Shown here one piece after another: positions 7,723-31,517 of a DNA stretch of 32,000 nucleotides. The notes beneath the pieces were generated by a model. It made no database searches, had not been told where the DNA came from, and saw only the letters and a list, made by a program, of their open reading frames with translations. The stretch is taken from contig NZ_JBPFEB010000129.1 of assembly GCF_051061225.1 (NCBI RefSeq), forward strand, positions 87,294-119,293, given 5' to 3'. The position numbers and the translations under genes are program-made. This DNA comes from Methylocystis sp. (GTDB lineage Bacteria; Pseudomonadota; Alphaproteobacteria; Rhizobiales; Beijerinckiaceae). Position 1 is the stretch's first letter. Each line of letters starts with the position of its first letter.

Positions 7723-7756
7723 CTCCCGCGCTTTCGGGCGCACCGCGGGCCTGTCT

Positions 7757-7796: not shown

Positions 7797-7805
7797 GGGG
7801 GCGCA

Positions 7806-8140: not shown

Positions 8141-8184
8141 CCCGCAATCTCCCACACCTCGTTTCCCGCCAGCGTGTTTGGGCA

Positions 8185-8873: not shown

Positions 8874-8909
8874 CGCCCTACCTCTGAGCGCCTACATAGA
8901 GAGAGTCCC

Positions 8910-9239: not shown

Positions 9240-9601
9240 AGCGGTTGATGACACGGTCCACATCGTCGATCACATCAAGTCGATTGCTGCGGCGATCAAG
9301 GCCCGGCCGCGATTGGCGAGACAACTGCGGTTGAATATCTGGCAAACAAAATAAGCAAGAGTTTCGGGAGCACAGGGAAGCTTCAAAGCGGGTTGCGCGC
9401 TACTTCCATCGTATTTGGGTAGCCAGCTTCTCAACGAAATGGTGGATGCGCCTGACCGCTTTCGCTCCCAGGTCATTCGTCTGCGGCAATGACGACGTGT
9501 TGAAGCGCAGATGTGTTTCGAAAGGGGCATTCGAGCAAGTCACCAGCCGTCTGGCTAAGCGAAAGTTTTTAATGGCGGCCAAGACGACTTCAAAACCATA
9601 G
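9211..9601 (+). pseudogene. MuB-like / AAA+ transposition ATPase, decayed copy 2
   Basis: The nucleotide paralogue of 7420-7645 starts with MHISRTSIFEAVDDTVHIVDHIKSIAAAI. A 1-nt deletion (ATCAAG versus ATCATAG) breaks the frame before the Walker A box, whose Lys codon is also changed (GGCGAGACA versus GGCAAGACA). Downstream frames still read ...FVCGNDDVLKRR...FEQVTSRLAKRKFL. Confidence 0.45.
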
Positions 9602-10284
9602 CGATTGATCGAGATGTCTGCGGGCTTGAAGCTCATAAAGCTAGTGCTAATTACGGTGGGGCCTTGTTGCCGAATGTTGACGAGCGAACAAGACGTCGAT
9701 GAAAATAGCGTGACGACGAGTTTCTGCGACGTTAGTGTGCAGTCTTGGCCTCTATGTCCTCGATCGCAAACCGAGGCCGCTTGGTAATGCCACGAAGTTG
9801 AGTGAGAACTCGCGGGAGGCGCTGCCGGCGCAGAGCATGCGCCCGACCGTTCAAATAGCAGGCGAGCCGCTTCCCAATAGTGACGTCACACCAACTGGCG
9901 GCGAGGCTTATTCAATCGAGAGGCGCTTTCTCGCGCTCGATCCGCATTGAGGCGACATCGCGCTCTGGCTGTCAGTTTCGATGACGGGCGCGTCATGGTT
10001 GCGGAGCCCTGCGCTCGCGCTGGCCCCGCGCATGCAACTTGCGCGTTCACGAAACCGTCAGGCGCCGCCACTGCGCTATTGAGATTATCACATAGCTATC
10101 TCTCGTCATACGATCCTCGCCGGGAAAGTCATCCGCGCGCTCAACTTCCGGGCGCGCTGCCCCATGCCGCTATGATTTGCGGGGAAAGCGAGCGTCAGAG
10201 CGTTTGCATTCGTCATTAAATTGCATCACACTTGAGCTAGACAATTTGCCGAGATTTTCTAAGACAGTTTGGGAACGAGACGAT

Positions 10285-11906: not shown

Positions 11907-14900
11907 ATGCGTGATTATCTGGAGCGACCGCCAATCGCAATCGTCGGGGTCGGCGCGATGTTTCCCGGTCGCGGCGGCACCGTGGGTTTCTGGCGCGATC
12001 TGGTCGAGGGGAGAGACGCCATCACCGAAGTTCCTCCGACGCATTGGGCGGTGGAGGATTATTACGACCCCGATCCGAAGGCGCCCGACAAGACCTATTG
12101 TAAGCGCGGCGCCTTCATTCCGGCCTTTCCGTTCGACCCCGTCGAGTTCGGCGTTCCGCCGAATGTCATCGAGGCGACGGACACATTTCAGTTGCTCGCG
12201 CTCCACGTCGCCAAGGAAGTGATCGCCGAGGCTGGCAAGGCGCGCTTTGGCCATATCGACCGCGAGCGCACCAGCGTGGTCCTCGGCGTGGCCGTCGGCT
12301 CCGAACTCATGACGGATATGTCGGCGCGCCTCTTTCGCCCTGTTTGGCTGAAGGCGTTGCGCGAGGCGGGCGTCGGCGAAACCAAGGCGCTCGCGATTTG
12401 CGATCGGATCAGCTCCCATTTCGGCGAATGGCGGGAAAGCACATTTCCTGGCCTGCTCGGCAATGTCGTCGCCGGCCGGATCACCAATCGGCTCGATATT
12501 GGAGGGACAAATTTCACCGCCGACGCCGCCTGCGCCAGTTCGCTCGCCGCCTTGCGTCACGCGGTTCAGGAGCTTTGGCTCGGCGAGTCGGATCTCGTCC
12601 TCACCGGCGGGTCCGACGCGCTGAACAATATTTTCATGTATATGTGCTTTTCAAAGACGCCCGCGATGTCGCCGACGGGTGACTGCCGTCCCTTCTCGGA
12701 AAGCGCCGACGGCACCATTCTCGGCGAGGGCGCGGGCATCTTCGCCCTGCGTCGTCTCGCGGACGCGGAACGCGACGGCGACACCATCTACGCCGTGATC
12801 CGCGGCGTCGGCGCGTCCTCCGACGGGCGCGCCAACAGCGTCTACGCGCCGCGCGCCGAGGGCCAGGCGCTCGCCTTGAAGCGCGCTTATCAACAAGCAG
12901 GATATTCGCCCCGCTCGGTCGAGCTTGTCGAGGCTCACGGAACGGGAACCCGCGCGGGCGACGCGGCTGAGTTCGCGGGCCTTTCCGAAGTCTTCAAGGC
13001 GGCGGACCCTTCGGGCCGCCAGTGGTGCGCCCTCGGCTCGATCAAATCGCAGATCGGCCACACGAAGTCTGCGGCGGGCGCGGCGGGGCTGATGAAGGCG
13101 GTTCTCGCGCTGCATCACAAGGTTTTGCCGCCGACATTGAAAGCCGAGCGCCCAAGCGCCAAGCTCGGCGTCGAGACCTCGCCCTTCTACCTGATCACAC
13201 AGGCCCGGCCATGGATTCATGCGCCGCTCGAGCCGCGCCGGGCTTCCGTCAGCTCCTTCGGTTTCGGGGGGAGCAACTTTCACGTGACGCTCGAGGAGTA
13301 TCACGGACCCGCGCCAAAGCCGGCGAGATTTCGCGCATTCGCCGCCGAACTCGTTCTGCTCTCGGGCGACAGCGCCGCGGCTCTCGTTGAAAGAGCGAGA
13401 TCCCTGGCGCAAAGCACGCAGCGCGACGACAGCCTGGCGCCTGCGGCCGCGAAAAGCTGCGGCGAATTCGACGCGACTGAGCCGCACCGCCTGGCTGTGG
13501 TCGCGTCGTCAGCGGCGGAGCTGCAATCGAGGATCGGCGAGGCTGTCCGCCAGATCGAAAAAGGAGCGGCCTTCGCGACTCCCGACGTCGCCTATGGGAG
13601 CGGCGCGCGCGCGACTGGCGCGATCGCCTTTCTTTTCTCCGGACAAGGCAGCCAATACCCGAATATGGGCGGCAGTCTCGCAATGGCCTTCGACGATGCT
13701 CGCAAGCCGTTTGACGACCTGGCCGGCGCTGCGCTCTTCGACGGCGAGTCGCTTCACGACATCGTCTTTCCAAAGTCAGCCGGTCGCGACGGGGACAGCG
13801 CTCGCCACGCTGCCGCGTTGACCGCAACGGAGAATGCGCAGCCCGCCATCGCCGCCGTCCAACTTGCGCATCTCGCGCTCTTGCGACGTCTTGGCGTCGC
13901 GCCGGACGCCGTCGCCGGGCATAGCTTCGGCGAAGTGATGGCGCTCCACGCGGCAGGCTGTTTCGACGCGCCGGCCGCCGTGCGACTGGCGCGTCAACGG
14001 GGCCTCGCGATGCGAGACGCCGCGCGCGGCGCCGAGGGCGCCATGCTGGCGGTGCAGCTCAATGTGGAGTCGGTTCGCGCCATGCTGGCGAAATCGAACT
14101 CGAAAGCGGTCATCGGAAACGATAACAGCCCCCGACAAGTGATCCTGTCGGGAAGCGTTGTCGACATCGAGATCGCCGCACGGGAGTTCGCCGCCGCGGG
14201 CGTCGACGTCAAGCAGCTTCCTGTCGCGACCGCCTTCCATTCGCCGATCGTCGCCGGCGCGGTCGACTCCATGCGACGCGCAATTGGAGCAATCGCCTTC
14301 GCCCCTCCATCCCTGCCTGTTTACGCCAACGCGACGGCGGCGCGTTATCCAGATCGAAGCGACGCGGCGGCGGAACAGCTCGCCCGCCAAATCGGCGAAG
14401 CCGTGCGGTTTCGGGAACTCGTCGAGACGATGTACCGCGACGGCGTCCGTACGTTCATCGAAATCGGGCCGGGTTCGATCCTGACGGGACTTGTCGGGCA
14501 GATTCTCGCCTCGAAAGAGCACCTCGCGCTTGCCCTCGACAACAAGCGCGCCGATGGCGTCGTGCAATTGCTGCGCTGCCTCGGCAGGCTCGCGGTCGCG
14601 GGCGTTCGCATGGACTTCACACTCTTGACGGAAGGCTGGCGCGGCTTGGCGGAGCCGCCTGTCCCCCCAAAGCACGCGGTTTGGCTTTGCGGCTCCAATC
14701 ACAACAAGCCGCGTCCCACGAAACTTGCGGACGAACTGACTGCGCCGGAGCCGGTCGGCGGCGTCGAGGCCGCCCGCGACCAGGCGCCCGCCCAAGGCGA
14801 TCAAGCCGACATGGCGGCCGCGCCGAGCCCGCTCGCCGCCGACGCGATCATGCCCTTGGAGCCGCTCGCGCGAGGCGCCGCTTCCGAACAGCGAGCGAAC

Positions 14901-17531: not shown

Positions 17532-20500
17532 GCTTCGTTCCAATCGCCATTGTGGGGCGCGGCCTGGTCTTGCCGGGCGCCCTCACGCCGGAAGCGTTCT
17601 GGGCGGCGATCCGCGAGGGACGCGATCTCGTGACCGAACGCCCGGAGGGCGACTGGCCCGATGAACCGGAAGCGTTCCGGCTGAGGCCCGGCGACCCCGA
17701 CGCCGAGGACAAGACCGTGACCTTCCGACTGGGCGCGGTCACCGGCTTCGAATCCATCTTCGACGCGTCGGATTTCGGCTTGCCCGCCGAAACGATCCTC
17801 CAATTGGAGCCGGCGTTTCAATGGCTCCTTCATTCCGCGCGCGAGGCCGTTCGCGAAATACGCAGGCCAAATCTGCGCGGCGTGCGGAGCGCCGTGGTGG
17901 TCGGCAATCTGTCCTACCCCGTCCGCAAGTCGCTCGACCTCGCGCAAGGTTTCTGGCTCGATCCGATCCTTGAGAGGCTCGGCGTCACGCCCCCGCCGCG
18001 ACCGACCGTCTCGCCGCTCAACCGATTCAGCTCGGGGCTGCCCGCGCATATGCTGGCGCGGGCGCTCGGGGCCGAGGGACCGGCGTTCTGTCTCGACGCC
18101 GCCTGCGCGTCCTCGCTCTATGCGCTCAAATATGCTTGCGATTATCTCGCAGACGGAAGCGTCGACGTGGCGCTGGCGACGGCGGTCAACGCCTGCGACA
18201 GCAATTTTCTCCACATTGGCTTCACCGCCTTGCGCGCTCTCAGTCCGACAGGAATGTCGCGACCCTTCAGCCAGCGCGCCGACGGTCTTCTCCCAGCCAA
18301 GGGCGCCGCCGCGATATGCCTGAAGCGCCTCGCGGACGCGGAGCGTGACGGCGACCGCATATTCGGCGTCATTCGAGGCGTCGGTCTGTCCAATGACGGC
18401 TCGCGAACGATTCTCAGCCCTGACAGCGACGGCCAGATTCGCGCGATGACGCGCGCCTATCGCGCCGCCGGCGTCGACCCGAAGTCGGTGAGCCTCGTGG
18501 AATGCCACGCGACCGGCACGCCCGTCGGAGACAAAACCGAGCTGAGGAGCCTCAAGGCCGTCTATGACGGCGTCAAGGACCTGCCGATCGGTTCGTTGAA
18601 GTCCAATCTGGGCCACCTCATCACGGTCGCCGGCCTGGCGGGCGTCGTGAAAGTGACGAGCGGCTTCGCCGCGCAAATCCGTCCCAAGAGCCTCAACGCC
18701 GAGGATCCCATCGCCGGATTCGAGGGAAGCGGGCTGCGCGTGCTGCAAGACGCGGAGCCATGGCCGGAGACGGAGCAGCCCCGGCGCGCGGGATTGAACA
18801 ATTTCGGGTTCGGCGGCAACAACGCGCATGTCGTGCTCGAAGAGTATCGACCGGCGCGCGGTTTCGCATCCGCGCCGCGCGCCGCGCAACGCCTTCCCGC
18901 CGAGCCCGTTGAAATCGCGATATGCGGCTTGGGCGTGGTCGCGGGCGAAACACGCGGTCTCGAAGCGTTCACGCGCCAGCTGCTCGTGGACGAGATCGAC
19001 GGCGCATCGACGCGGGCGGATTTCGCGCAGCTTCAATTGAGGGGGCTGCGTTTCCCGCCGAAGGAGCTTCAGGACGCGCTCGGCCAGCATGCCCTGATCT
19101 TCGAGGCGGCGCAGAGCGCGCTTCGTGGCGTGGCGTCGGTCGCGGATGAGCGCGCCGGCGTCTTCATCGGTATGGGCTGCGACGTGGACGCCGCGCGTTC
19201 GGGAATGAGGTTGCGCGTCAAATCGAGTCTGAAGGCGGCCGGGATCAGCCCGAGCGAACCGCTCGTCGAGAAGATCAAGGAGGCGATCGGCGGCGCCCGA
19301 GGCGCGCAAATTCCCCTCTCCTCCATGCCCAATCTGCCGGCCAATCGCATCAATGCGCAAACCGGCTGGAAGGGCGTTGGCTTCACCGTCTCGGGGGAGG
19401 AATTGTCGGGCCTCGTCGCCGTCGAACTGGCGGCGCGCGCCCTGGCGCAAGATGAACTCGACCTCGCGCTCGCCGGAGCGGTGGACCTTTCCTTCGAGCC
19501 GGTTCATCTCGAAGCCGCCAGACAGGTCCTGCCCCAATCCAGGCGGGCGCCGGGCGACGCCGCGATCGCCCTGGTTCTCAAGCGCCGCGCCGACGCGGAG
19601 CGTTGCGGCGACCCGATTTACGCGACGCTTGTCCTGTCGCCTTCCTCGGACACCCACCCCGCCGAGACCATCGACATCGATGATCAACCGACGCGCGCGT
19701 CCGAACGCTTCGGACATGCGCACGCCGCGTCGGGCCTTGTCGATCTCGTCGCGGAAATCGCGCGGATCAAGGCCAGGACGTGCGTCTCAGGCACAAAACG
19801 CGTTCCCATCCTCGCGCCGGCGGGGCAACCGGCGGCAAGGTTCCGCAGGCGATCCTTTACGGGTCAGAGCCATGAACTGACAATCGTCGAAGCGCCGGCG
19901 GCTCCGTTACAGGGTTCGTTGCCTCAGGCGCCCTGCCTGTTTTTCTCGGCCGCCGATTCGTTTTCGGATTTGAGCCGCCGTCTCGCCCGGCGCGAGCCGG
20001 CGACCGAGGGCTCGGTTCGGATCGCCATTCTGGCGACCGGCCCGGCGCAACTCGCCGAGCGGATCGAGCTCGCGTCGAGGATGCTGGCGTTTGGAAAACG
20101 ACCCGCCGGACCCGGCGTCCATTTCGGCGACGCCGTCAAGGCCGGCGACGTCGCCTTTGTCTATTCCGAGCTGGGCGCCGCCTACAGCGGGGCGTATCGA
20201 CCGCTGCTCGACGCCTTCCCCGAAATCGTCGATCGCAAGATGCGCCACGTGGAAGGCTGCGCGCGCGAGGCTTTCCTCGCCTATGCCGATCCTGATCGTC
20301 CTCTCGATAGCGCATTGGCGAGCGCCCATATCGGCGCCTTTCACGCATTCCTCGCCACCGCTGTCGCCCGGGAGATCCTCGGGCTCGCGCCGCAAGCGGC
20401 CCTGGGGCTCTCGATGGGCGAATCCAATATGCTCGCCGCCATGGGGGCGTGGGAGGAGCCGAGCGGCGTCATGTCGGCGCTCATTCGATCTGGCTTCTAC

Positions 20501-21517
20501 AGCGACGTGGCGGCGAACTATTCAGCCGTCGCCCAGTCCTGGAAGCTCGCCCCAGGCGACGCGATCGACTGGCAGAACTGGTGGGTGCGGGCGCCGATCG
20601 AGGACGCGCGCGCGGCGCTGGACGGTCTCGATCGCGCCTATCTGTTGATCGTGATGTCTCCGGAAAGCTGCGTGATCGGCGGCGACGCGGCCGCCTGCGC
20701 GATCTATGCGCAACGGATCGGCCTCCATCGCATGGTGCTCACCGACAGCAAAGCCGCGCTCCATTGCTCGGCCGCGCAACCGCTCGCGGCGGCCTATCGT
20801 CAGGCCCATCTCAGCAAGCTTCGCAAAATTCCGGGAGTAAGATTTTATTTCAACGCCGTCCAAGGGGCGGTCGATCTGGAGGAGAACGTCGTTGCTGATC
20901 TGCTTGCGCGCCAGGCGGTGGAATGCGTCGATCTGCGGCCGACCGTCCTGCGCGCCTATGCGGACGGGGTCCGCGTGTTTGTCGAAATCGGACCGCGCGC
21001 CGCGATCAGCCAATCCATCTCGGACATCCTCGGCGAGCGGCGGCCGCTTTCGCTGTCGCTTGATCAAAAAGGCGCCAAGCCGCTCGTCGCCTTGACGCGC
21101 GCCGCCGCGAGCCTGTTCGCGGCGGGCGTGAAGATTGACTTGAGGCTTTTGGCTGAACGTCTCGCGACCTTGCGCGGCGACGCCACGGCCAAACCGGCGC
21201 AAGGCGATCAAAAGCTTCGCTTGCCGGTTCACCTGCAAGCGGTGGCGCGTGGTCTGGCCGCAGTGTCGATAGACGACGAGGATGTCCGCCGGACGGAAAC
21301 CGCCAGCGCGCCGTCATCACGACAATTCGCCCCGGAACCGGCGACGGGCGCGCCGCCGCTCTCCTCTGTTTCACAGTTGCTGAACGAGCCCTCGTTCACA
21401 AGCTCGCTGAGAGAGAGCCGCCGCAATCGTCTTGTCCCCTCTTCAAGCCCCGTCCCTCTTCTCCGTCCTCCTTCGGCGATTTTGGGGAGCCGCAAGAGTC
21501 AGGCGAAAGCGCCGTAG
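17528..21517 (+). CDS. KS - chain-length-factor - acyltransferase protein (PfaC N-terminal half fused to a PfaB-type AT)
   Basis: The ATG overlaps the upstream stop (ATGA at 17528-17531). KS: LDAACASSLYAL (Cys193, nt 18104-18106), ECHATGTPVGD, GSLKSNLGHLITVAG. CLF: a second KS-like fold whose active-site Cys position reads FTVSGEELSGL. AT: GLSMGE (Ser962, nt 20411-20413). The last roughly 80 aa are low-complexity. Confidence 0.85.
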   Translation: MSFVPIAIVGRGLVLPGALTPEAFWAAIREGRDLVTERPEGDWPDEPEAFRLRPGDPDAEDKTVTFRLGAVTGFESIFDASDFGLPAETILQLEPAFQWLLHSAREAVREIRRPNLRGVRSAVVVGNLSYPVRKSLDLAQGFWLDPILERLGVTPPPRPTVSPLNRFSSGLPAHMLARALGAEGPAFCLDAACASSLYALKYACDYLADGSVDVALATAVNACDSNFLHIGFTALRALSPTGMSRPFSQRADGLLPAKGAAAICLKRLADAERDGDRIFGVIRGVGLSNDGSRTILSPDSDGQIRAMTRAYRAAGVDPKSVSLVECHATGTPVGDKTELRSLKAVYDGVKDLPIGSLKSNLGHLITVAGLAGVVKVTSGFAAQIRPKSLNAEDPIAGFEGSGLRVLQDAEPWPETEQPRRAGLNNFGFGGNNAHVVLEEYRPARGFASAPRAAQRLPAEPVEIAICGLGVVAGETRGLEAFTRQLLVDEIDGASTRADFAQLQLRGLRFPPKELQDALGQHALIFEAAQSALRGVASVADERAGVFIGMGCDVDAARSGMRLRVKSSLKAAGISPSEPLVEKIKEAIGGARGAQIPLSSMPNLPANRINAQTGWKGVGFTVSGEELSGLVAVELAARALAQDELDLALAGAVDLSFEPVHLEAARQVLPQSRRAPGDAAIALVLKRRADAERCGDPIYATLVLSPSSDTHPAETIDIDDQPTRASERFGHAHAASGLVDLVAEIARIKARTCVSGTKRVPILAPAGQPAARFRRRSFTGQSHELTIVEAPAAPLQGSLPQAPCLFFSAADSFSDLSRRLARREPATEGSVRIAILATGPAQLAERIELASRMLAFGKRPAGPGVHFGDAVKAGDVAFVYSELGAAYSGAYRPLLDAFPEIVDRKMRHVEGCAREAFLAYADPDRPLDSALASAHIGAFHAFLATAVAREILGLAPQAALGLSMGESNMLAAMGAWEEPSGVMSALIRSGFYSDVAANYSAVAQSWKLAPGDAIDWQNWWVRAPIEDARAALDGLDRAYLLIVMSPESCVIGGDAAACAIYAQRIGLHRMVLTDSKAALHCSAAQPLAAAYRQAHLSKLRKIPGVRFYFNAVQGAVDLEENVVADLLARQAVECVDLRPTVLRAYADGVRVFVEIGPRAAISQSISDILGERRPLSLSLDQKGAKPLVALTRAAASLFAAGVKIDLRLLAERLATLRGDATAKPAQGDQKLRLPVHLQAVARGLAAVSIDDEDVRRTETASAPSSRQFAPEPATGAPPLSSVSQLLNEPSFTSSLRESRRNRLVPSSSPVPLLRPPSAILGSRKSQAKAP

Positions 21518-21560: not shown

Positions 21561-24500
21561 ATGACCGTTTCGGTGAAACCCAATCCCAATATCGCCGGGA
21601 AGGCCGCCGAGCCCTTCCCCGAACTTTCGCCGACAGGCTTGCAGCTCACGCGAGAGCAATTGGAGTTTGCCGGGCGCGGCCCGCTTTCGGAAGTGTTCGG
21701 CCCGCTCTTCCGGCAACAGGACTCCTATGAGCGGGTGTGCCGTATGCCCTGCCCGCCCTTGCTCCTCGCCGATCGCGTGACCGGACTCGCCGGGCAGCCC
21801 GGCTCCATGGGCCAGGGGGTCATCTGGACGGAGACCGACGTCAAGGCCGACGCCTGGTATCTCCACAATGGCCGGATGCCGCCGGGCGTGACGATTGAGG
21901 CCGGGCAAGCCGACTTGATGCTGATCTCGTGGCTCGGCGTCGATTTCCACAACCGCTCCGAGCGGGTCTACCGCCTCCTCGGCTGCGAATTGACCTTTCA
22001 CACCTCCTACCTGCCGAAGGTCGGCGACACGATCCGATACCAGATCCACATTGACGGCCACGCGCAGATCGGAGGCACGCGGCTTTTCTTCTTCCGCTAC
22101 GACTCGCGCGTCGGCGATCAGCTTCTAAGTTCCGTGCGCAACGGCCAGGCGGGCTTTTTCGCCGACGCGGAGCTCGCGGCCTCGGCCGGCGTCCTGTGGA
22201 CTGCCGAAGACGACCGGCCCAAGGCGGACGCGCAACTCGACGCGCCGCCGCGCCTCACCAAAAAGCGTCGCTTCTCCACCGCCGAGATCGAAGCCTTCGC
22301 CCAGGGCGACGCCTATGCATGCTTCGGCGAAGGTTTCGAGATGGCCGCGCCGCACACGCGCACGCCCACGATCGGCAAGGGGCGCATGCGCCTTTTCGAC
22401 AGAGTCGTCGATTTCGATCCGCATGGCGGTCCCTGGGGTCGCGGCTATTTGCGCGCCGAATATGACGCGCCCGTGGATGCGTGGTTTTACGCCGGCCATT
22501 TCCATAATGATCCGTGCATGCCCGGCACGCTGATGGCCGAGGCGGCCGCGCAAGCGCTCGAATTCTATATGGCCGCGCTCGGATTCACGATCGACAGGGA
22601 TGGCTGGATTTTTGCTCCCGTGGCGGCCGAGGCTTACAAATTCATCTGTCGCGGGCAGGTCACGCCCGACCGCGCACATCTGATCACCTACGAAGTTTTC
22701 ATCGAGGAAATCATAGCCGGCGAGCGGCCGACCATCCACGCCGCCCTGCTGGCGCGCAGCGACGGCCACAAGGTGTTTCTCGCTCGCCGATTTGGCGTCC
22801 GTCTCGTCCCGGACTGGCCGTTGAACGAGCAACGACTGTTGGCGCCCAGCGTCGCGCCCAAAAGGATTGTCTCTCCGACGGGCGACGTGCCGGGCGATTT
22901 CGAGTCGCTGCTCGCGACCGCCACAGGCAAGCCATCCGACGCCTTCGGCGCGCTCTACAGGCCCTTCGACGAGGGACTGCGCGTCGCGCGGCTGCCGAGC
23001 CCGCCCTATCACTTCATGTCGGAAGTTGTTTGCGTGGATTGTCCGCCCGGCCTTCCCACTCCTGGCGGCAAAGTCGTCGTTGAATACCGCCCTCCAGCGG
23101 ACGCCTGGTATTTCCGTGACGGCGGCAATGGGGAGATGCCCTTCGCCGTGCTCATGGAGACCGTGTTGCAGCCTTGCGGCTGGCTTGCGTCTTACATGGG
23201 ATTCTCCAAGGCGTCGGTTTCGTTTCGCAATCTGGACGGAAGCCGCGCCACGATCCATCAGCCGGTGACGGCGCACACTGGCGCGTTGCGCACGACAGTG
23301 ACGTTCGAGCGCTACGCCGCCGCCGGGCCGACAACGATCGTGTTTTTTTCACTCGTCTGCGAGTGCAGCTCCGGCCGGGTCATGACGCTCGAGACCTCCT
23401 TCGGCTATTTTTCGAGCGACGCGCTCGCCAATCAGAAAGGTCTCCCGGTTTCGCCGGCGCATCGCGCGCGTCTCGAGGCGCCAAGCGAGATTTCCGACCA
23501 GCTCGACTCGGCCTCGCAACTCCGTCGCGAAGGGCGCCCGTCACTGCCGGGCGGACGCTTCAACCTCATCGATGGGGTGACGGGATTCTGGCCGCGCGGG
23601 GGAGCCGCAGGGCTCGGCGCCATTCGCGGGCGGCAGAAAATTGATCCGCGCGCCTGGTATTTCAAGGCGCATTTCTTCCAGGACCCCGTACAGCCGGGCT
23701 CGATTGGCCTCGAAAACTTGATCAGCCTGGCCAAGGCCGCCGCCTTGCTGCTGGAACTCGACACGGGCGTCGCCAACCCGGTCTTCGTGGCGCCCGCGCG
23801 TGAGCATGCGTTTCTTTGGAAGTTTCGCGGCCAGGTGCTGCCGACGTCTCGTGAAGTCACGAGCGAAGTCGAGATCCGCAGCGTCACCGTCGATAGCGGC
23901 GTCGTGACGCTGGTGGTTGACGGCGATCTGTGGGTCGATGGCGTACGCATCTATGAATTGCGGGATCTCGCGCTTCAAATTCGATCTGGCGCAAGGAATC
24001 TTGGCGGCCCGACCGGGCGCCGGGAAAAAAGCGTGGATATCGAGGCGCAGCCCTGGCTCTCCGGCCATTGCCCGACTTATGGCGCCCCCGCCTTTCCGCT
24101 TCTCGGCGTCGTTGGCGCGCTGGCGACGACGGCGCGCGCCGGGGGACCACGCAAAAAGCTGACCGCCCTGAGCAATTTGGAACTCTACCGATGGATGCGT
24201 CTCGACCAGGGTCCCATCGCGCTGTGCTTTGAAACGCTGCGCATCGACGGCGACAACCTGTGGACCGACATCCGCCTCGACATGGATGAAGGCGGAGGCC
24301 CGCAGAAACTCCGCGTCGGTCGCGTGATCGAGACCTACGCGGAGGATTATTTGCCAGCCCCGGCGCTCTGGCCGGGCCCCATTGGCGGCGCGCCATTCGA
24401 TCCTTACGAGCAGGGGGGCCTGTTTCACACCGAAGCGTTCATGCGCGCCGAAGGTTTCATCCGGGACAGCACGTGCTCGGCCTATGACGTCGACGTCGAA

Positions 24501-25157
24501 AGCGCGCTTGACGCCGCCCAGGGCGATATCTCCCTTCTCCTCGACAGCACTGCGCATGGCGTGCCTTATGGAACGCTCGCGGTGTGGTTCGCTGTTCCGC
24601 AAAGCGGCGTCTGCAGCCTGCCGCGACGCATCGACACCTTGCAATTTTACGCGAGCCTGCCGGCCTCTGGCCGCTTGCGCGTCGTCACCAGGGCTTTGGA
24701 CATGCAATCCGCGCGCACGCCGCGCTGCGAGATCCAGGTCCAGCACGACGGTCGCGTTCTCTTCCAATATCTGCTCGCCACCGCGCTCTTGCCAGCTTTC
24801 GGCGCCAGCATGGCCGCCGAACATTGGCGCGACTTCCTCCTGCGGGGCCGTTGGGCGCCCGGCGGTCATTGCGCGGAAATCGAAGCAAATCGCACCCGAT
24901 TCTCGATCGAGCGGTTGAAAGCGCTCAACTGGTTCCCCGGAACACTGGAACGTCTCTACGGGGCGTCCGGCGATCCCGGGGCCATCGTCGAGGCGGTCGC
25001 GGTCAAGGACCACTTCGCCCACAAGTTCAAAGTCCATCCGAGCCGCGTCGAGATTGGCGGCCAAACGGTTCGCGTGGCGGATCAGGCGCTCTCATTGCAC
25101 GACCTCGTCGCGCGGCGCTGGATCACCGCGGATATTTTCGAAATCGCGGATCGATAA
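21561..25157 (+). CDS. Multi-hotdog dehydratase: two PfaC-type DH/FabA-like modules plus a C-terminal PKS-type DH-like module
   Basis: ATG 21561 follows GGGAGA. Module 1: AWYLHNGRMPPGVTIEAGQADLMLISWLG, then the FabA motif GHFHNDPCMPGTL (His313). Module 2: AWYFRDGGNGEMPFAVLMETVLQPCGW, then AHFFQDPVQPGSIG (His704). C-terminus: WLSGHCPTYGAPAFP (His836) and LLLDSTAHG (Asp995). Confidence 0.8.
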   Translation: MTVSVKPNPNIAGKAAEPFPELSPTGLQLTREQLEFAGRGPLSEVFGPLFRQQDSYERVCRMPCPPLLLADRVTGLAGQPGSMGQGVIWTETDVKADAWYLHNGRMPPGVTIEAGQADLMLISWLGVDFHNRSERVYRLLGCELTFHTSYLPKVGDTIRYQIHIDGHAQIGGTRLFFFRYDSRVGDQLLSSVRNGQAGFFADAELAASAGVLWTAEDDRPKADAQLDAPPRLTKKRRFSTAEIEAFAQGDAYACFGEGFEMAAPHTRTPTIGKGRMRLFDRVVDFDPHGGPWGRGYLRAEYDAPVDAWFYAGHFHNDPCMPGTLMAEAAAQALEFYMAALGFTIDRDGWIFAPVAAEAYKFICRGQVTPDRAHLITYEVFIEEIIAGERPTIHAALLARSDGHKVFLARRFGVRLVPDWPLNEQRLLAPSVAPKRIVSPTGDVPGDFESLLATATGKPSDAFGALYRPFDEGLRVARLPSPPYHFMSEVVCVDCPPGLPTPGGKVVVEYRPPADAWYFRDGGNGEMPFAVLMETVLQPCGWLASYMGFSKASVSFRNLDGSRATIHQPVTAHTGALRTTVTFERYAAAGPTTIVFFSLVCECSSGRVMTLETSFGYFSSDALANQKGLPVSPAHRARLEAPSEISDQLDSASQLRREGRPSLPGGRFNLIDGVTGFWPRGGAAGLGAIRGRQKIDPRAWYFKAHFFQDPVQPGSIGLENLISLAKAAALLLELDTGVANPVFVAPAREHAFLWKFRGQVLPTSREVTSEVEIRSVTVDSGVVTLVVDGDLWVDGVRIYELRDLALQIRSGARNLGGPTGRREKSVDIEAQPWLSGHCPTYGAPAFPLLGVVGALATTARAGGPRKKLTALSNLELYRWMRLDQGPIALCFETLRIDGDNLWTDIRLDMDEGGGPQKLRVGRVIETYAEDYLPAPALWPGPIGGAPFDPYEQGGLFHTEAFMRAEGFIRDSTCSAYDVDVESALDAAQGDISLLLDSTAHGVPYGTLAVWFAVPQSGVCSLPRRIDTLQFYASLPASGRLRVVTRALDMQSARTPRCEIQVQHDGRVLFQYLLATALLPAFGASMAAEHWRDFLLRGRWAPGGHCAEIEANRTRFSIERLKALNWFPGTLERLYGASGDPGAIVEAVAVKDHFAHKFKVHPSRVEIGGQTVRVADQALSLHDLVARRWITADIFEIADR

Positions 25158-25179: not shown

Positions 25180-26637
25180 ATGATTGAGAACCAGATCGCA
25201 GTCGCGAAGAAGCACCCGGACATCGGGGATCGCATCTGTATCGTCGGCGCCGGCGCCGCAGGCGTTTACATGGCTTATCTGTTGAAGCAGCGAGGATATA
25301 AAAACGTCACGGTGCTCGAAAAGGAAAACAGGATCGGCGGACAATGCCATACGAAGGTTTTTCATGGCGTTCCACATGAGCTTGGCGCCAGCATGGGGAA
25401 CGCGTCGTATGAAGATCTGGTTCGTCTCAATGAAGACCTGAAACTCGACGAATTGGTGCAAAATCCGGACGAACGGAACATCCACGTCTTTCAAGGCGAG
25501 GTCCATCTGCTCGAAGATCTCGTTTTGGGGCTTCACAACCAGGCGGGGTTGACGCAAACTCTGCTCAGACCCTGGAAAAGGCTGCAGTTTTTCCAAAGTT
25601 GTCTGAAATATATCCGGATACATGAAAAAATTTTCGGGACCTCGAAATATGTCTACGGCAGCCGTCCAACCGTCAATGACGTCAACATGACGTTTCACGC
25701 ATTTCTGAAAAAACACCATCTGCTCAATTTGACGAATTTCTTCAGATTTCTGTTCTCCACTCAATACGGCCACCTCGAAACAACTCCAGCTTTGTACGGG
25801 CTCTGGTGGTGCACCCCGAAAATGGTCAGAGCGGTCATAGAACCGATGGGCAGGAAGCGCCCGACATTCCTGTTCAGGCTAAAAAGCGGCTATCAGCCAT
25901 TCTTTGAGAAACTGGCGCTCAAGAGCGAGGCTGACATTCTCCTCGGCTATCAGGTCGACTCCATCGAGCGCAAACAAACGATCCGGGTGAACGGGAAACA
26001 TCAATCCAGGCCCCGAACGCTGGAGTTTGATTTCCTCATCATGGCGTGCTCGGCCAAACAGGCGCTTGCGTGTCTCGATTGCACGGAGGCAGAGAGGGAT
26101 ATCTTCTCGAAGCTGGAATATACCTATCCGGCGATGACTGTTTTCACATCAAAGACCAATACGAGTCTCCTCCAGGGCGCCGGTTGTATCTGGTTCGATA
26201 TGGCGATCCCCGGAGCCTCTCCCCACAAGGGCGTGGTCAATCTCGTCAAGGAGCTTGCCAACTATTACAATATCGAAGCTGTCAATGACCAGAACGTCCC
26301 TGAGAGAGTTTATGTGACGTTCCAACATTCAGAGCGCGGAGAAGGACCGGGGAACGAAGAGGAGCTCAACCGTGCTCTCATAGCGGATCTCGTCCGCAAG
26401 GGTTTTGGAGAGCCCGAAATCCTCTATCAATGTCGTTGGCGCTATTTTCCCGCCTTCCGTCAGGACGCGATAGATGAGGGCTATCCCTGGAAGATCACGG
26501 AAATGCAGGGCGAGAACAACACCTGGCATATCGGAAGCTCTGCTTGCTTCGAGTCGGTCAAGGACGTGATGAACTATAATCAGATGCTCGTCGCCACGTT
26601 GCTTCCCAAAGGCGAATGCGTTGACGGTCAGAGATGA
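25180..26637 (+). CDS. FAD-dependent amine-oxidase-fold protein, polyenoic fatty-acid isomerase (PAI)-like, low-GC copy
   Basis: 485 aa. Dinucleotide-binding RICIVGAGAAGVYMAYLLKQRGYKNVTVLEKENRIGGQCHT. Also FSTQYGHLETTPALYGLWW and a C-terminal WRYFPAFRQDAIDEGYPWKITEMQGENNTWHIGSS. These resemble my recollection of P. acnes PAI (IIGAGPAGL..ILERTDHVGGKCHS; FGYGH..PAAYVL; WYYFPHV...EGMQGRRNTFYAGE). Start is trimmed to ATG 25180. Confidence 0.6.
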   Translation: MIENQIAVAKKHPDIGDRICIVGAGAAGVYMAYLLKQRGYKNVTVLEKENRIGGQCHTKVFHGVPHELGASMGNASYEDLVRLNEDLKLDELVQNPDERNIHVFQGEVHLLEDLVLGLHNQAGLTQTLLRPWKRLQFFQSCLKYIRIHEKIFGTSKYVYGSRPTVNDVNMTFHAFLKKHHLLNLTNFFRFLFSTQYGHLETTPALYGLWWCTPKMVRAVIEPMGRKRPTFLFRLKSGYQPFFEKLALKSEADILLGYQVDSIERKQTIRVNGKHQSRPRTLEFDFLIMACSAKQALACLDCTEAERDIFSKLEYTYPAMTVFTSKTNTSLLQGAGCIWFDMAIPGASPHKGVVNLVKELANYYNIEAVNDQNVPERVYVTFQHSERGEGPGNEEELNRALIADLVRKGFGEPEILYQCRWRYFPAFRQDAIDEGYPWKITEMQGENNTWHIGSSACFESVKDVMNYNQMLVATLLPKGECVDGQR

Positions 26638-26808
26638 CCGCCCCTTAGTTTGACGCGACAGGGCATCCTCGTCCGGGAGGCGAAGCCCTACGCTTCTCTG
26701 GCTTTTATCCGCATGGAAGGCCGCACGTCCCGATCTCTTGAGCATGACAGACCGGAGCGAGCGCTGAGCGCGGAAATAGCAGACCACTGGCGTTGAAAAG
26801 GCAAACAG

Positions 26809-28110
26809 ATGATGGCCGCGAGGATGCAGGGAGACTCCAGAGAATGTGACGTCGTCGTCATTGGCGGCGGCTTCGCGGGGCTGTCAATATCGTTGCTTCT
26901 GAAACAAAGAGGCCTGAAGTCCGTCATCCTCGAAAAGTCGGAGCGCGTCGGCGGCAAGTCGCGGACGCTCAACCTGCATGGCAATGTCATCGAACTTGGA
27001 ACGTGCTTCACCGCGCGTGATTATCGCGATGTCGTTGCGCTCGCAGAGCAATATGGCGTCCGCACCCAGCCGCTGGGTCGCGCCAGCGCAAGCCCGGAGA
27101 GCGTGCTGGGCGCTCTTTACACCAAGCGCATTGCAACGCGTTTTAACAGTTTATCGCGAATGATCGCGATCATGAGCAGCCTTCAACGGTACGCGCGAGA
27201 GCGGCGAAAGGCGCTCGCCCGTTTCGACGCGCGCGTCGCTTCGGAATACGCCGCGCTGGCCATGCCGGCCCTGGACTGGCTGAGACGGCATCGCTGTCAA
27301 GCGCTCGAGCCGGTCTTCCTCGGCGTGGGCGACGTCTATGGATATGGGCCAATGAAGACGATGCCAGCGCTCTACGCCCTGCGTTGGGTGACGCCCGAAA
27401 TGGTCATCACCGCCTTCACCTCGACAGCGAAACGCCTCGACGTCGGATTTGGCGAATTGGCGGAGCGTATCGCGGAGGAGACGGAGATCTGGCGATCTCA
27501 GACGCTCACCCACGCGTCCCGAACTCCAAATGGCGCATGGTCGCTGTCCACGCCAGGCAATTCGTTCAACGCCCGGCATGTGGTTGTTGCTTGCGCGCCC
27601 AAATCCTCCGAGCTCCTCGAGCTGTTCGATCCGACACGGCGTCGAATCATCGAGAACCATGTCGTCTCCACTCCTTATTTCTCAGTGTTGGTGAAGGCGG
27701 CCCATTGGTTTACGAACGCTCGTCGCGCCTTTCTCCGAGCCGGCGACCACAGAGACCAGCTCATGATCGCGCGCAATGATGGGCCGGCTGATGACGGCGG
27801 AAGTTATTACGTTTGCTTTCTCTGCCCCACGATCGCCGACACGTCACATATCGAAGCAATCCTCGATCGCGCCATCGCCCGGGACGGCGGCGTTTTGCGG
27901 GAGATTGTCGAGATTCGGGGCTGGGGCGACTACATGTCCCGTCTCGATGCGGATGCGATCGGTTGCGGGAGCTACGCCACCCTGGAGGATCTTCAGGGAG
28001 CCGAAAATGTCTGGCTATCGAATTCAATCCTCGCGCATGAAAACTGGCGCGATCTCCTTGCCCTGAACAAGAGGATCACGGACGCGATCTGTGCGGCGTC
28101 GCAAGCATAG
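26809..28110 (+). CDS. FAD-dependent amine-oxidase-fold protein, PAI-like, paralogue 2
   Basis: 433 aa. Contains CDVVVIGGGFAGLSISLLLKQRGLKSVILEKSERVGGKSRT, VYGYGPMKTMPALYALRWVTPEMV and LEDLQGAENVWLSNS. It is colinear with the previous protein. The start could also be the internal Met at 26824. Confidence 0.6.
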   Translation: MMAARMQGDSRECDVVVIGGGFAGLSISLLLKQRGLKSVILEKSERVGGKSRTLNLHGNVIELGTCFTARDYRDVVALAEQYGVRTQPLGRASASPESVLGALYTKRIATRFNSLSRMIAIMSSLQRYARERRKALARFDARVASEYAALAMPALDWLRRHRCQALEPVFLGVGDVYGYGPMKTMPALYALRWVTPEMVITAFTSTAKRLDVGFGELAERIAEETEIWRSQTLTHASRTPNGAWSLSTPGNSFNARHVVVACAPKSSELLELFDPTRRRIIENHVVSTPYFSVLVKAAHWFTNARRAFLRAGDHRDQLMIARNDGPADDGGSYYVCFLCPTIADTSHIEAILDRAIARDGGVLREIVEIRGWGDYMSRLDADAIGCGSYATLEDLQGAENVWLSNSILAHENWRDLLALNKRITDAICAASQA

Positions 28111-28177: not shown

Positions 28178-29353
28178 CTATTTCTTTGCGTTGGCCGCGC
28201 GCTTGATCGAGGACGTGGGGCCGTCGTCGGCGGCCAGCGCGGACATCTCGCGTCGCGGATCGGACGCGAAGGCATGGGCGCCGCCCGCTGTTTCGGCGAT
28301 GCGCGTCTGGGCCGCCGCCTTCGCCGCCGCCATGGTGACGACCGGCGATTTGGCGGCAAGCTGGGTCGCCTTGCCGCCCGCCGGCCGCGCCGCCTTGTCG
28401 GCGATGGCGATTTCTTCCGGCGGCGCCAACGCTTCCGGACGGCTCGCCTCGGCGACCTTCGAGAAGAAGGCCGGATGCATGCCGCCGTCCTGATAGACCA
28501 CGCGCACCGGGCTCACGGTCTGCGACAGTTCGGCGATCTTCTCTTCGTCCTTCGACGCCTTGGCGGAGACGCTGGCGACGATCTCGGGGTCCTGCTTCAG
28601 CGGCGGGCAGGCGGAGATCGGATCGGCCTGGCCGTCGATCGTGGCGTTGAAGACATAGCGCCGGCCGCAATAGGCGACCTGCGGCTCCTCCCTCGTCACC
28701 TCGAAATGGTCGTTGCCTTCCTTGAGGTTCTTCCAGAAGCCAATATTCGGATCGAGACGGTGCTTGGCCAGATTTTCCGCCGTCATGCGGAAGGGGTAGG
28801 ACTGCATCTGGATCGCCTGCTGGCCGCCGTTGAAGGACGAGCGCGCAATGGCGTAAATCTCGGCGATCTGCGCGTCCGTCATGGAGAAACAGCCGGCCGA
28901 CGAACAGGCGCCATGCACCATGATGGTGCCGCCCGTGTGTCCCAGCGCCCGGTCGAGCTGATTGGGATAGCCGACGTTGAACGACAGATAATAGGACGAA
29001 TTGGGGTTCATCTGCGCCGGCGTGATCGAATAGAAGCCCTCCGGCACCTGACGGTCGCCCTCGCGGGTCTTGGGGCCGAGCTGGCCCGACCAGCGGCACA
29101 TGGGGAAGGTCTTGAGGTGCGTATATTTGCCGTCCGCCCCCATCTTCCAGATTTCGAGCTCCGCCTCCTTCTTGTAGGCGCGGATCAGCATCGGCGCTTC
29201 TTTCGTCGTGCCGACTTTCTCCATGAGCGCCACGGTTTCGGGCGGTATGGGCGCGAGCGAGCGATGCGACAGGCCGCTGTCCTGGCAGGCGGCGAGCGAA
29301 AGCGCGGCGAGAGCGGCGGCGGCCAGGGCCGGCTTCAGGACCGAAAATTTCAT
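28178..29353 (-). CDS. YafK-like L,D-transpeptidase-family lipoprotein
   Basis: Start is trimmed to MKFSVLKPALAAAALAALSLAAC, a signal peptide with lipobox. The catalytic region IMVHGACSSAGCFSMTDAQIAEIY matches the YkuD/YafK HG..S.GC motif. The C-terminal Ala/Lys-rich tail is probably disordered. Confidence 0.75.
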   Translation of the reverse strand: MKFSVLKPALAAAALAALSLAACQDSGLSHRSLAPIPPETVALMEKVGTTKEAPMLIRAYKKEAELEIWKMGADGKYTHLKTFPMCRWSGQLGPKTREGDRQVPEGFYSITPAQMNPNSSYYLSFNVGYPNQLDRALGHTGGTIMVHGACSSAGCFSMTDAQIAEIYAIARSSFNGGQQAIQMQSYPFRMTAENLAKHRLDPNIGFWKNLKEGNDHFEVTREEPQVAYCGRRYVFNATIDGQADPISACPPLKQDPEIVASVSAKASKDEEKIAELSQTVSPVRVVYQDGGMHPAFFSKVAEASRPEALAPPEEIAIADKAARPAGGKATQLAAKSPVVTMAAAKAAAQTRIAETAGGAHAFASDPRREMSALAADDGPTSSIKRAANAKK

Positions 29354-29537
29354 GCGCTCAAGCTCCCCTCTCGCCCAGCCCCGTCCGGATCGCAGGTCGC
29401 GCCAGGCGCGCCGCTGCAAGCATCCAGCCGGCTCGGAGCCTCCCAGGCCATCTAGCGGGCTAGACCCGACTTGGGGCAAGAAAGTGTCCAAACCGTCGCC
29501 CGACAAGCGGAAACGGGAGAATTTTACGCTTGTTTCG

Positions 29538-30503
29538 TTAACGCTTCTCGTCCAGCCGACGGCCCATGTTAAGGAATTTTTCGGCTCGGGCGGCGCGAAG
29601 CTGCTCGCGGGAGAGATTGGTCAGGCGCGACAATTCGGTCCAGACCGCGTCGCCGACGGCCGTGATCGCGGCTTCCGGATCACGATGGGCGCCCCCGGCC
29701 GGCTCGGCCACGATCACGTCGATGATGCCGAACTTCAGGAGGTCCTGCGCCGTGATCTTCATGCTGGTGGCCGCGTCCTGCGCCCTGGCCGAATCGCGCC
29801 ACAGGATCGAGGCCGAAGCCTCGGGCGAGGCGACCGTATAGACGGCGTGCTCCAGCATCAGCACCTTGTTGGCGGCGGCGATAGCGATGGCGCCGCCAGA
29901 GCCCCCCTCCCCCACCACGACGGCCACGTTCGGCACGCCGAGCGACAGGGAGGCGTCGGTCGAGCGGGCGATGGCCTCGGCCTGTCCGCGCTCCTCGGCG
30001 TCGATGCCCGGAAAGGCGCCGGCCGTGTCGACCAGCGAAATCACCGGCAGCCCGAAGCGGTCGGCGAGCTCCATGAGGCGCACGGCCTTGCGATAGCCCT
30101 CCGGCCGCGCCATGCCGAAATTGTGATGGAGCCGGCTCGCGGTGTCGGAGCCCTTCTCCTGCCCGATGACGCAGACCGGCTCGCCGCGGAACCGGCCGAA
30201 GCCGCCGACGATCGCCGAGTCCTCGCCGAAGAAGCGATCCCCCGCGAGCGGCGTGAACTCGGTGATGAGCTGCTTCACGTAATCCGAGAAATGCGGCCGC
30301 TGCGAATGCCGGGCGACCTGAATCTTCTGCCAGGGCGTGAGCGTTGCGTAGAGATCGGCGAGCGCCTTGGCGGCCTTGGCTTCGAGCTTGGTCAGCTCCT
30401 CGGAGATGGAGACGCCCTCGCCGCCCTCGGCCAGCGCGCGCAGTTCCTCCACCTTGGTTTCGAGCTCGGCGACAGGCTTTTCGAAATCGAGATAGGAGCG
30501 CAT
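29538..30503 (-). CDS. accA: Acetyl-CoA carboxylase carboxyltransferase subunit alpha
   Basis: 321 aa. MRSYLDFEKPVAELETKVEELR..., TPWQKIQVARHSQRPHFSDY, FGMARPEGYRKAVRLMELADRFGLPVISLVDTAGAFPGIDAEERGQAEAIA. Full-length AccA signature. Confidence 0.93.
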   Translation of the reverse strand: MRSYLDFEKPVAELETKVEELRALAEGGEGVSISEELTKLEAKAAKALADLYATLTPWQKIQVARHSQRPHFSDYVKQLITEFTPLAGDRFFGEDSAIVGGFGRFRGEPVCVIGQEKGSDTASRLHHNFGMARPEGYRKAVRLMELADRFGLPVISLVDTAGAFPGIDAEERGQAEAIARSTDASLSLGVPNVAVVVGEGGSGGAIAIAAANKVLMLEHAVYTVASPEASASILWRDSARAQDAATSMKITAQDLLKFGIIDVIVAEPAGGAHRDPEAAITAVGDAVWTELSRLTNLSREQLRAARAEKFLNMGRRLDEKR

Positions 30504-30644
30504 GGGCGAGGGGATGTCCTGATGATCGACGCGGCCGCAAACTCGCCGCTCGGCGCCGGGAAGTCAAGAAAGGCCGCGCCCCCGGCGTCGCCATTTTGAC
30601 GCCGTTTGGCGGCAAGGTGGATATTCGTGAAAAAGGAAGCCTGC

Positions 30645-31517
30645 GTGAACCCGACCCTGCCCGCCGTCAGCCGCTTCGTGGCCGCCCCCGACGGCCTGCG
30701 TCTGCATTATCTCGATTATCCCCGCCCCGACGCCGCGCGGCTGCCGCTGGTCTGCCTCCCGGGCCTCGCCCGCTCGGCGGACGACTTCTGGCGCGTCGCG
30801 GAAGCCGCGCGGCAGGCGGGGCGGCGCGTGCTCGCGCTCGATTATCGCGGCCGCGGGCGCTCGCAATGGGACGCGGACTGGCGCCGCTACGATCTCGACG
30901 TCGAACAGGCGGATATTCTCGCCACGCTCGCCGATGCGGGCGTGACGGAAGCGGTCTTTCTCGGGACCTCGCGCGGCGGCCTGCATACCATGCGCCTCTC
31001 CAGGGCGCGTCCGGCCCTCGTGCGCGCGGCGATCCTCAACGACATCGGCCCGAAGGTCGAAAAGGACGGCCTGCTGCGCATCAAGAGCTATGTCGGAAAG
31101 CTGCCGCCGCTCTCGCGGCTGAGCGAGGCGGTCGCGCTGATGCGCATGACGGCGGCGCCCCGATTCTCGGGCGTCAGCGCGGAGGAATGGGAGGTCTATG
31201 CGCGCCAGACCTTCGTGGAAAAAGAGGGCCGCGTGGAATTGCGTTACGATCCGGCTCTGAACCACACGCTCGACAGCGTCACGCCGGAGGCGGAGTTCGA
31301 GGACTTCTGGGAGCCTTTCGCGGCGCTGGCGGCAGTTCCGATCCTCGCCATTCGCGGCGAGACGAGCGACATTCTCTCGGTCGACACCCTCGACGAAATG
31401 GCGCGACGGGCGCCTTTGCTCGAGCGCTATACGGTTCCCGGCCAGGGCCACGCGCCGTTGCTGCTCGATCCGCCGACCATCGCGCGGATCATGGAATTTC
31501 TGGGGGCTCAGGGGTGA
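30645..31517 (+). CDS. Alpha/beta-fold hydrolase
   Basis: LHYLDYPRPDAARLPLVCLPGLARSADDF, nucleophile elbow FLGTSRGG, and a C-terminal GQGHAPLL (His). Start is proposed at GTG 30645 (AAGGAAG 7 nt upstream) rather than the TTG at 30606. Confidence 0.75.
   Translation: MNPTLPAVSRFVAAPDGLRLHYLDYPRPDAARLPLVCLPGLARSADDFWRVAEAARQAGRRVLALDYRGRGRSQWDADWRRYDLDVEQADILATLADAGVTEAVFLGTSRGGLHTMRLSRARPALVRAAILNDIGPKVEKDGLLRIKSYVGKLPPLSRLSEAVALMRMTAAPRFSGVSAEEWEVYARQTFVEKEGRVELRYDPALNHTLDSVTPEAEFEDFWEPFAALAAVPILAIRGETSDILSVDTLDEMARRAPLLERYTVPGQGHAPLLLDPPTIARIMEFLGAQG

Follow-up and report, generated by a model that had tools for sequence, protein, structure and literature searches.

The stretch of DNA analysed here (referred to hereafter as the window) comprises 32,000 nucleotides of a Methylocystis sp. 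contig (NZ_JBPFEB010000129.1, positions 87,294 to 119,293 of the forward strand). At 25180 to 28110 it carries two adjacent genes for flavin adenine dinucleotide (FAD) proteins, A and B, placed at the tail of an operon of the pfa type, the class of genes that encodes bacterial polyunsaturated fatty acid (PUFA) synthases. Both proteins resemble the Propionibacterium acnes fatty-acid isomerase (PAI) over their full length, and relatives of B recur beside synthases of this kind.

Two flavoprotein genes at the tail of a pfa-type operon

The genes of the operon and its immediate border are as follows (KS, ketosynthase; AT, acyltransferase; ACP, acyl carrier protein; KR, ketoreductase; CLF, chain-length factor; DH, dehydratase).

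10177 to 11898, forward strand: PfaD-type enoyl reductase (TIGR02814 pfaD_fam, 595 bits against a cutoff of 449; Pfam FabD_helical_ins match)
11907 to 17531, forward strand: PfaA-like subunit, KS-AT-ACP-ACP-KR (TIGR02813 omega_3_PfaA, 1288 bits against a cutoff of 1010)
17528 to 21517, forward strand: KS-CLF-AT subunit (Pfam ketoacyl-synt twice, Ketoacyl-synt_C, Acyl_transf_1)
21561 to 25157, forward strand: dehydratase/isomerase subunit with tandem FabA-type DH domains (Pfam FabA twice, E=3e-74)
25180 to 26637, forward strand: flavoprotein A, PAI-like FAD enzyme of 485 residues from an ATG start, 'A' subfamily
26638 to 26808, forward strand: A–B spacer of 171 nt, with a weak terminator-like hairpin at 26675-26698, then TGGCTTTTAT
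26809 to 28110, forward strand: flavoprotein B, PAI-like FAD enzyme of 433 residues, pfa-linked 'B' subfamily, final gene of the unit
28178 to 29506, opposite strand: YkuD L,D-transpeptidase, next gene after B

Upstream of A and B, the order pfaD / pfaA / KS-CLF-AT / FabA-dehydratase occupies 10.2–25.2 kb on the same strand. A preliminary description of the window had placed the two flavoproteins at the tail of a pfa-type operon, and this holds: the PfaD and PfaA models match above their cutoffs, and the KS-CLF-AT protein and the FabA tandem are both present. Judged by domain content, the operon is shown to encode the predicted enzyme set of an iterative PUFA-type synthase. Its pfaD frame is opened by a TTG at 10177, with ATG 10285 as the likely start. 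The PfaA-like subunit comprises, by Pfam, KS, AT, two PP-binding and KR domains, and the Pfam/NCBIfam domain scan saw no C-terminal DH domain of the polyketide synthase (PKS) type in it. The two ACP sites are GVDSI motifs at residues 1194 and 1303, and both ACPs, together with their Pro/Ala-rich linkers, are encoded by 15316-15939, a tandem duplication of 327 bp (1.9 copies, 93% identical). The KS-CLF-AT subunit, 1329 residues long in the gene call on an identical contig (L003), has a weak pfaB_fam match (83 bits, under the cutoff of 144) and is predicted to be the equivalent of the N-terminal half of PfaC plus a PfaB-like AT. NCBIfam FabA models match three stretches of the dehydratase subunit.

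No thioesterase gene occurs in the window, and no phosphopantetheinyl transferase (PPTase, pfaE) was found among the window open reading frames (ORFs) examined, some ORFs having been left unscanned. The ACP count is two, against four or more in the canonical synthases for eicosapentaenoic and docosahexaenoic acid. Given the two ACPs and the PPTase not found, we assign the operon to the pfa-like variants of the 'secondary lipid' kind rather than to the canonical omega-3 type.

The A gene starts 22 nt past the dehydratase stop on the same strand, with a GAAGGG Shine–Dalgarno-like stretch ~10 nt upstream. A GC-rich hairpin (26675-26698), identified by consensus scan only, begins 38 nt past the A stop and is followed by a T-rich tail; in the same promoter/terminator consensus scan, site counts were not above the shuffled expectation. 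B may have its own promoter and be transcribed separately. Since the YkuD gene downstream lies on the other strand, B ends the unit. The contig L003 (Logan run SRR33307857) holds the same genes at 100% protein identity, and an independent gene call there gave products of 485 and 432 residues.

Relationship of A and B to the P. acnes isomerase

A and B match PAI motif by motif. The GxGxxG motif of the FAD fold reads IVGAGAAG in A and VIGGGFAG in B (IIGAGPAG in PAI), and the E-K-x4-GG-(Q/K)-(C/S) block that follows it reads LEKENRIGGQC in A, LEKSERVGGKS in B and LERTDHVGGKC in PAI. Further along, YGH...PALYGLWW of A and YGYGP...PALYALRW of B fall on the same columns as FGYGHFDNVPAAYVLKY of PAI, and the C-terminal motifs MQGENNTW (A), LQGAENVW (B) and MQGRRNTF (PAI) align column for column. 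Beyond the Rossmann fold, the motifs common to PAI and to the families of A and B are GYG, PAxYxL, YF and QGxxN(T/V)(W/F). The motifs quoted in the preliminary description were all found in A and B, each aligned with the matching motif of PAI.

Pfam assigns both proteins only to a generic superfamily (PF01593 Amino_oxidase, 66.2 bits for A and 68.0 bits for B, cutoff 19.8). Comparison with the sequences of the PDB is more informative. The best phmmer match of A is 2B9W (E=5e-21, residues 17-472 of A on 7-420 of PAI), which is the P. acnes fatty-acid isomerase under a deposit titled 'putative aminooxidase'; the second match (E=1.6e-5) covers the first ~60 residues only. B as a single sequence likewise finds 2B9W best (E=5e-12), and a profile of ten B-family sequences finds it at E=3e-23 (positions 4-415 on 3-418), with nearly all of its other matches ending within ~90 residues and none extending past ~275. 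PAI is the only full-length PDB match for A and for the B-family profile, the others spanning ~50-100 N-terminal residues. This full-length similarity is specific to PAI, because domains 2 and 3 of that enzyme were without structural homologues according to the passage of PMC2885616 (2007, citing Liavonchanka 2006) that bears on them.

Other identities within the superfamily were tried and rejected. NCBIfam models for protoporphyrinogen oxidase, CrtI/CrtD and HpnE scored 25-51 bits against cutoffs of 98-640 and covered the first 50-170 residues only, and an amine-oxidase identity for A or B was dismissed, as PDB alignment coverage was limited to the N-terminal FAD stretch.

AlphaFold2 models of A and B were built on a 38-sequence alignment and compared with the PDB using Foldseek. 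The models are of good predicted quality by their local and global confidence scores (A, pLDDT 86.4 and pTM 0.90; B, pLDDT 93.0 and pTM 0.91). For A, 2B9W ranks first (E=9.4e-29, TM 0.76/0.86), followed by CpaO at 1.4e-21; for B, 2B9W again ranks first (E=1.3e-26, TM 0.80/0.81), followed by a match at 6.9e-22, with CpaO ranked 13th (3.4e-20). For both models the E-value of 2B9W beats that of the next fold match by 5-7 orders of magnitude. A and B are thus shown, at the level of predicted structure, to be cytoplasmic-looking FAD proteins in which the whole modelled three-domain fold, not the FAD domain alone, matches PAI. The preliminary description had expected PAI to head a PDB search for both proteins with full-length coverage, and it does so in sequence and in predicted fold alike; desaturases, protoporphyrinogen oxidases and amine oxidases, which it had named as the competing best homologues, match far more weakly.

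A and B share with PAI the size of a monomeric FAD protein, the three-domain fold and the GxGxxG, E, GGK, GYG, PAxYxL and QG motifs, A being longer than PAI by ~60 residues. They differ in setting: PAI is a stand-alone enzyme whose substrate, C18 linoleate, is exogenous; A and B form part of the operon of a de novo synthase.

Families, neighbourhoods and origin of A and B

A and B align with each other over their full length at 24% identity (BLASTP, E=8e-20); A, B and PAI are roughly equidistant from one another, and A and B fall into separate subfamilies. They also differ in composition. A has a GC content of 0.521 and a third-position GC content (GC3) of 0.646, lower than in any other gene of the cluster, against 0.604 and 0.710 for B; GC3 is 0.72-0.80 in the synthase genes and 0.77-0.88 in the flanking host genes, and the neighbouring pfa and host genes have a GC content of 0.65-0.70, compared with 0.52 in A. 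Because GC content, neighbourhoods and relatives all differ, the two genes did not, on this evidence, arise by duplication in situ, and they are best classed as distant homologues of different subfamilies rather than a local tandem duplication. The term 'paralogous', applied to them beforehand, stands in the sense of distant homology and fails in the sense of a pair born together.

The B family is small. Among 5.8 billion proteins, a word-indexed search retrieved ten true relatives including B itself, the other nine being 36-55% identical to it, and a scan of JGI metagenomes with the B alignment added one further locus (L087). The same alignment scanned against 185,579 named species genomes found none, B relatives being either absent there or too diverged for the scan patterns. 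What distinguishes the family is its company. In L087 and L089, the B homologue directly follows, in the same orientation, the gene for a fused KS-CLF-AT-DH-DH protein; in the P0047 contig and in L004 and L005, it is divergently transcribed relative to the pfaD gene that opens a pfaD-pfaA-pfaC operon. These pfa-adjacent homologues are 43-54% identical to B. With close relatives collapsed into single lineages (L087 and L089 at ~90% nucleotide identity; P0046, P0047 and P0048 at 79-88% identity), the B family stands beside pfa genes in four independent lineages including the window, in two gene arrangements and with two synthase architectures. The functional coupling to the synthase that the preliminary description had suggested is strengthened by this synteny. 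We infer that B is an ancestral, dedicated partner of this synthase type.

The neighbourhood of one B relative (P0050) is cut by a contig end. A tandem B-like pair (P0051; L006 10001-12689), ~35-36% and 32% identical to B, lacks pfa genes over the available 15 kb, and in L006 it adjoins nitrile-hydratase-like fragments and a ParDE toxin–antitoxin pair. The L006 pair is possibly a pfa-independent branch of the B family.

The A family is far larger. An indexed protein search gave 41 relatives, and an exhaustive comparison of a combined A+B profile with 1.84 billion cluster representatives gave 1,119 matches at E<=1e-30, the top 150 of which are nearly all A-like, a few being nearer to PAI (~30% identity). 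A profile–profile comparison of A1 with A2 was not used as evidence, A2 containing the B family. The closest relatives of A, 47-49% identical, lie in contigs of low GC content (0.31 and 0.34; L001 and L002), flanked on both sides by other flavoprotein genes and with patatin and Aas-type genes nearby. From the low GC content of A and of the contigs that hold its relatives, A appears to have been added by horizontal transfer; the composition suggests that it came later, from a donor of low GC content, and was placed between the dehydratase gene and B. At the distant A-family loci P0005, P0007 and P0013 there was no consistent lipid theme beyond nearby plsX/fabH or an S-adenosylmethionine-dependent methyltransferase.

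The neighbourhood of the closest A relatives is itself conserved. L001 6347-15671 and L002 2674-14622 share a cyclic-nucleotide-binding patatin lipase, three consecutive flavoprotein genes, the middle one of which is the closest A relative, an Aas-type acyltransferase/AMP-binding fusion and an NAD-dependent epimerase/3-beta-hydroxysteroid-dehydrogenase-like protein. A PAI-like identity was rejected for the flavoproteins flanking the A homologue in L001, one having generic N-terminal matches and the other a weak CrtI match. The cluster appears, from its gene content, to be an uncharacterised module of fatty-acid remodelling (release, modification and re-esterification). Full-length A-type homologues at 26-30% identity were also seen in marine protist transcriptomes and in a sea anemone, a bolidophyte, a dinoflagellate and a red alga (P0011, P0015, P0020, P0024, P0025, P0027, P0029), the red-algal member being a Gracilaria 'amine oxidase' (P0029).

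GC content is 0.65-0.72 over most of the window. The flanks (1-6291 and 28178-31517) encode a histidine kinase fragment, DUF1491, comEC, DUF2336, lexA, the YkuD transpeptidase, accA and an alpha/beta hydrolase. AccA (29538-30503) is 90% identical to that of Methylocystis sp. JR02, with named matches almost all in Methylocystis/Methylocystaceae, and the host is therefore a Methylocystis-like methanotroph. Between lexA (5533-6291) and pfaD lies a 3.9-kb stretch (6292-10176) with a GC content of 0.57, in which a Mu-like major head gene (gpT, PF10124 / phrog_371) is frameshifted into the ORFs 8185-8577 and 8445-8873, beside small unassignable ORFs. This stretch looks like a decayed prophage at one edge of an acquired island that holds the pfa cluster; since the synthase genes have a lower GC3 than those of the host, the entire segment at 6.3-28.1 kb looks like such an island.

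Proposed function and competing explanations

The best explanation of these observations is that A and B, distantly related to each other, both belong to the PAI branch within the flavin amine-oxidase superfamily and were recruited to a PUFA-synthase-like 'secondary lipid' operon in a Methylocystis-like alphaproteobacterium. Both are most probably tailoring enzymes dedicated to the polyunsaturated product of the synthase; that they isomerise it to conjugated systems such as dienes or trienes we put at about an even chance. The operon may, by analogy with PAI, make conjugated polyene lipids, since PAI is the only full-length relative of A and B and B recurs beside such synthases.

FabA-type domains are of the kind that installs cis, methylene-interrupted double bonds. 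In the proposed scheme, the FabA-type domains would yield a methylene-interrupted cis polyene, which would be released as a free acid, and A and B would each hold a polyunsaturated acyl chain above the flavin, in a hydrophobic channel. A hydride would pass from a bis-allylic CH2 to N5 of the flavin and be given back two carbons away, which would bring the double bond into conjugation without net redox change; bis-allylic hydride abstraction and re-delivery is reportedly the mechanism that Liavonchanka and colleagues proposed for PAI in 2006 and 2009. Two enzymes of different regiospecificity could together generate either a single conjugated triene or tetraene or a pair of separate dienes, and in the low-GC donor the relatives of A would act on fatty acids freed from phospholipids. 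The fullest version of this scheme, a self-contained bacterial conjugated-polyene pathway in which the synthase makes a skipped polyene, two regiospecific PAI-like isomerases turn it into a triene or tetraene lipid, and B represents a new family co-evolving with pfa-like synthases, we offer tentatively, as possible and somewhat short of probable.

Several observations weigh against the isomerase proposal. We infer the isomerase chemistry of A and B from homology at ~20% identity (18-23% between either protein and PAI). Arg88 and Phe193 of PAI form what we take to be a carboxylate gate at the channel mouth, and these gate residues appear not to be kept in the B family, in which Arg91 of B is not family-conserved. 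For A the match is partial: at the Arg87/88 column an Arg is semi-conserved in its family, a point in favour of the proposal, in an approximate alignment that is one column off Arg88, and the Phe193 region aligns poorly. Both families instead have an invariant Tyr (Y144 in A; Y128 in B, where a conserved Arg precedes it, R127-Y128) that PAI is without. The second-best fold match of A, CpaO, is a net oxidase with a PAI-like fold, and fold alone therefore does not fix the chemistry. A methylene-interrupted polyene product is an assumption, given the two ACPs and the lack of a PKS-type DH on PfaA, as is release of the free acid, given that no thioesterase or PPTase gene was found in the window.

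The distribution of the synthase also bears on the proposal. The dehydratase protein has 336 relatives in named genomes, the best 50% identical, in hosts that include Hyphomicrobiales, Denitrobaculum, Hoeflea, Azospirillum, Hyphomonas, myxobacteria, Mycolicibacter and Gemmatimonadota. At the 80 closest of these 336 loci, tblastn out to 10 kb found no gene resembling A, B or PAI, the tails of the related pfa loci holding a P450, a major facilitator superfamily transporter or nothing recognisable; the synthase therefore works without a PAI-like enzyme, and the coupling is not general to the synthase type. B is accordingly best described, from gene neighbourhoods, as a probable accessory of pfa synthases that is rare and specifically linked to them but stands outside the synthase core.

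The chemistry might instead be a net oxidation on a PAI-like fold, in which two hydrogens are removed and the new double bond extends the conjugation (or some other flavin-oxidase reaction takes place), with O2 or a quinone re-oxidising the flavin. The PF01593 superfamily consists overwhelmingly of oxidases and desaturases, and the standing of CpaO as next-best structural match of A and the apparent absence from B of the carboxylate-gate residues both fit such a reaction. So do the red-algal and other algal homologues in the A family, red-algal 'fatty acid oxidases' that make conjugated tetraenes with release of H2O2 having been described biochemically. Across domains 2 and 3, however, A and B are nearer to PAI than to any oxidase, and the desaturase and protoporphyrinogen-oxidase models of NCBIfam fall far below their cutoffs, so we judge an oxidase rather unlikely, if the most serious competitor to an isomerase. 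A different substrate or step is less probable again: the enzymes could act on the ACP-bound growing chain or on an esterified lipid, or could catalyse another redox-neutral or reductive step such as cis–trans isomerisation or reduction of a conjugated bond. The window encodes no thioesterase that would free the chain, B is without an Arg at the gate column, and the invariant Tyr absent from PAI could bind a different head group. Against this, the patatin and Aas context of the closest A relatives points to free fatty acids, and free acids are the only substrates known for PAI-type enzymes, conversion of free linoleate being described in PMC2885616.

That the two genes merely happen to lie here, as ordinary amine oxidases, protoporphyrinogen oxidases or carotenoid desaturases, or with A as a non-functional passenger of horizontal transfer, we consider very improbable. 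The generic Pfam assignment, the anomalous GC content of A with a terminator-like hairpin behind it, and the unrelated neighbourhoods of distant A-family members all fit chance co-location. Yet the protoporphyrinogen oxidase, CrtI, CrtD and HpnE models reach only the N-terminal stretch at scores far under their cutoffs, the synteny of the B family with pfa genes in four lineages largely refutes the idea for B, and the A gene is intact, 100% conserved in a second sample and set 22 nt from the dehydratase gene.

The isomerase proposal can be set beside systems already described. The operon shares PfaD and PfaA families, KS-CLF and tandem FabA-type DH domains with the canonical pfaABCDE synthases of Shewanella, Photobacterium and Moritella and with the clusters surveyed by Shulse & Allen 2011 (PMC3098273); it departs from the canonical pfaABCDE arrangement in having pfaD first, PfaC split into KS-CLF-AT and DH proteins, and two ACPs. 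In the Shulse & Allen survey of pfa-like clusters (PMC3098273), the words oxidoreductase, oxidase and FAD do not occur. CpaO (PDB 9KP8), the FAD oxidase of alpha-cyclopiazonic acid biosynthesis, is itself structurally closest to PAI; it differs from A and B in its covalent FAD, net oxidation and different substrate domains, and as a fold match for them it is ~6-7 orders of magnitude weaker in E-value than 2B9W. A eukaryotic enzyme that carries out the predicted type of reaction on long-chain PUFA is reported to be a flavoprotein too, and red-algal proteins such as P0029 occur in the A family. That enzyme (PMC7700177) is likened to A and B by reaction and not by sequence, and, unlike them, has no link to a synthase operon. 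In Nostoc sp. PCC 7524, a pfa-like operon with two FAD-dependent oxidoreductases has been noted as uncharacterised (bioRxiv 10.1101/2025.10.24.682833); that cluster is a nonribosomal peptide synthetase hybrid, unlike the operon described here, and is likened to it by description, the oxidoreductase family not being stated there. In the library covered by full-text search, no paper connected PAI-like enzymes with PUFA synthases, in agreement with the earlier remark that the combination was not known to be characterised. The enzyme fold and the synthase type are known; their combination is new and conserved, and it involves two unannotated subfamilies.

For the majority of pfa-like 'secondary lipid' clusters no product is known, and a conserved accessory with recognisable chemistry gives a testable prediction for one group of them, namely an ultraviolet-active conjugated lipid. 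If the prediction is true, PAI-type isomerases would be extended from a single stand-alone enzyme of dietary linoleate to dedicated biosynthetic tailoring, and the family would offer new catalysts for conjugated fatty acids, possibly of different chain-length and positional specificity. The sea anemone, bolidophyte, dinoflagellate, red alga and marine protists with A-type homologues are organisms in which the formation of conjugated PUFA has been described biochemically, and to our knowledge the genes responsible there are mostly unknown. The A-type family (~1,100 representatives, algal and cnidarian members included) is essentially unannotated, and might include these long-sought marine genes for conjugated PUFA.

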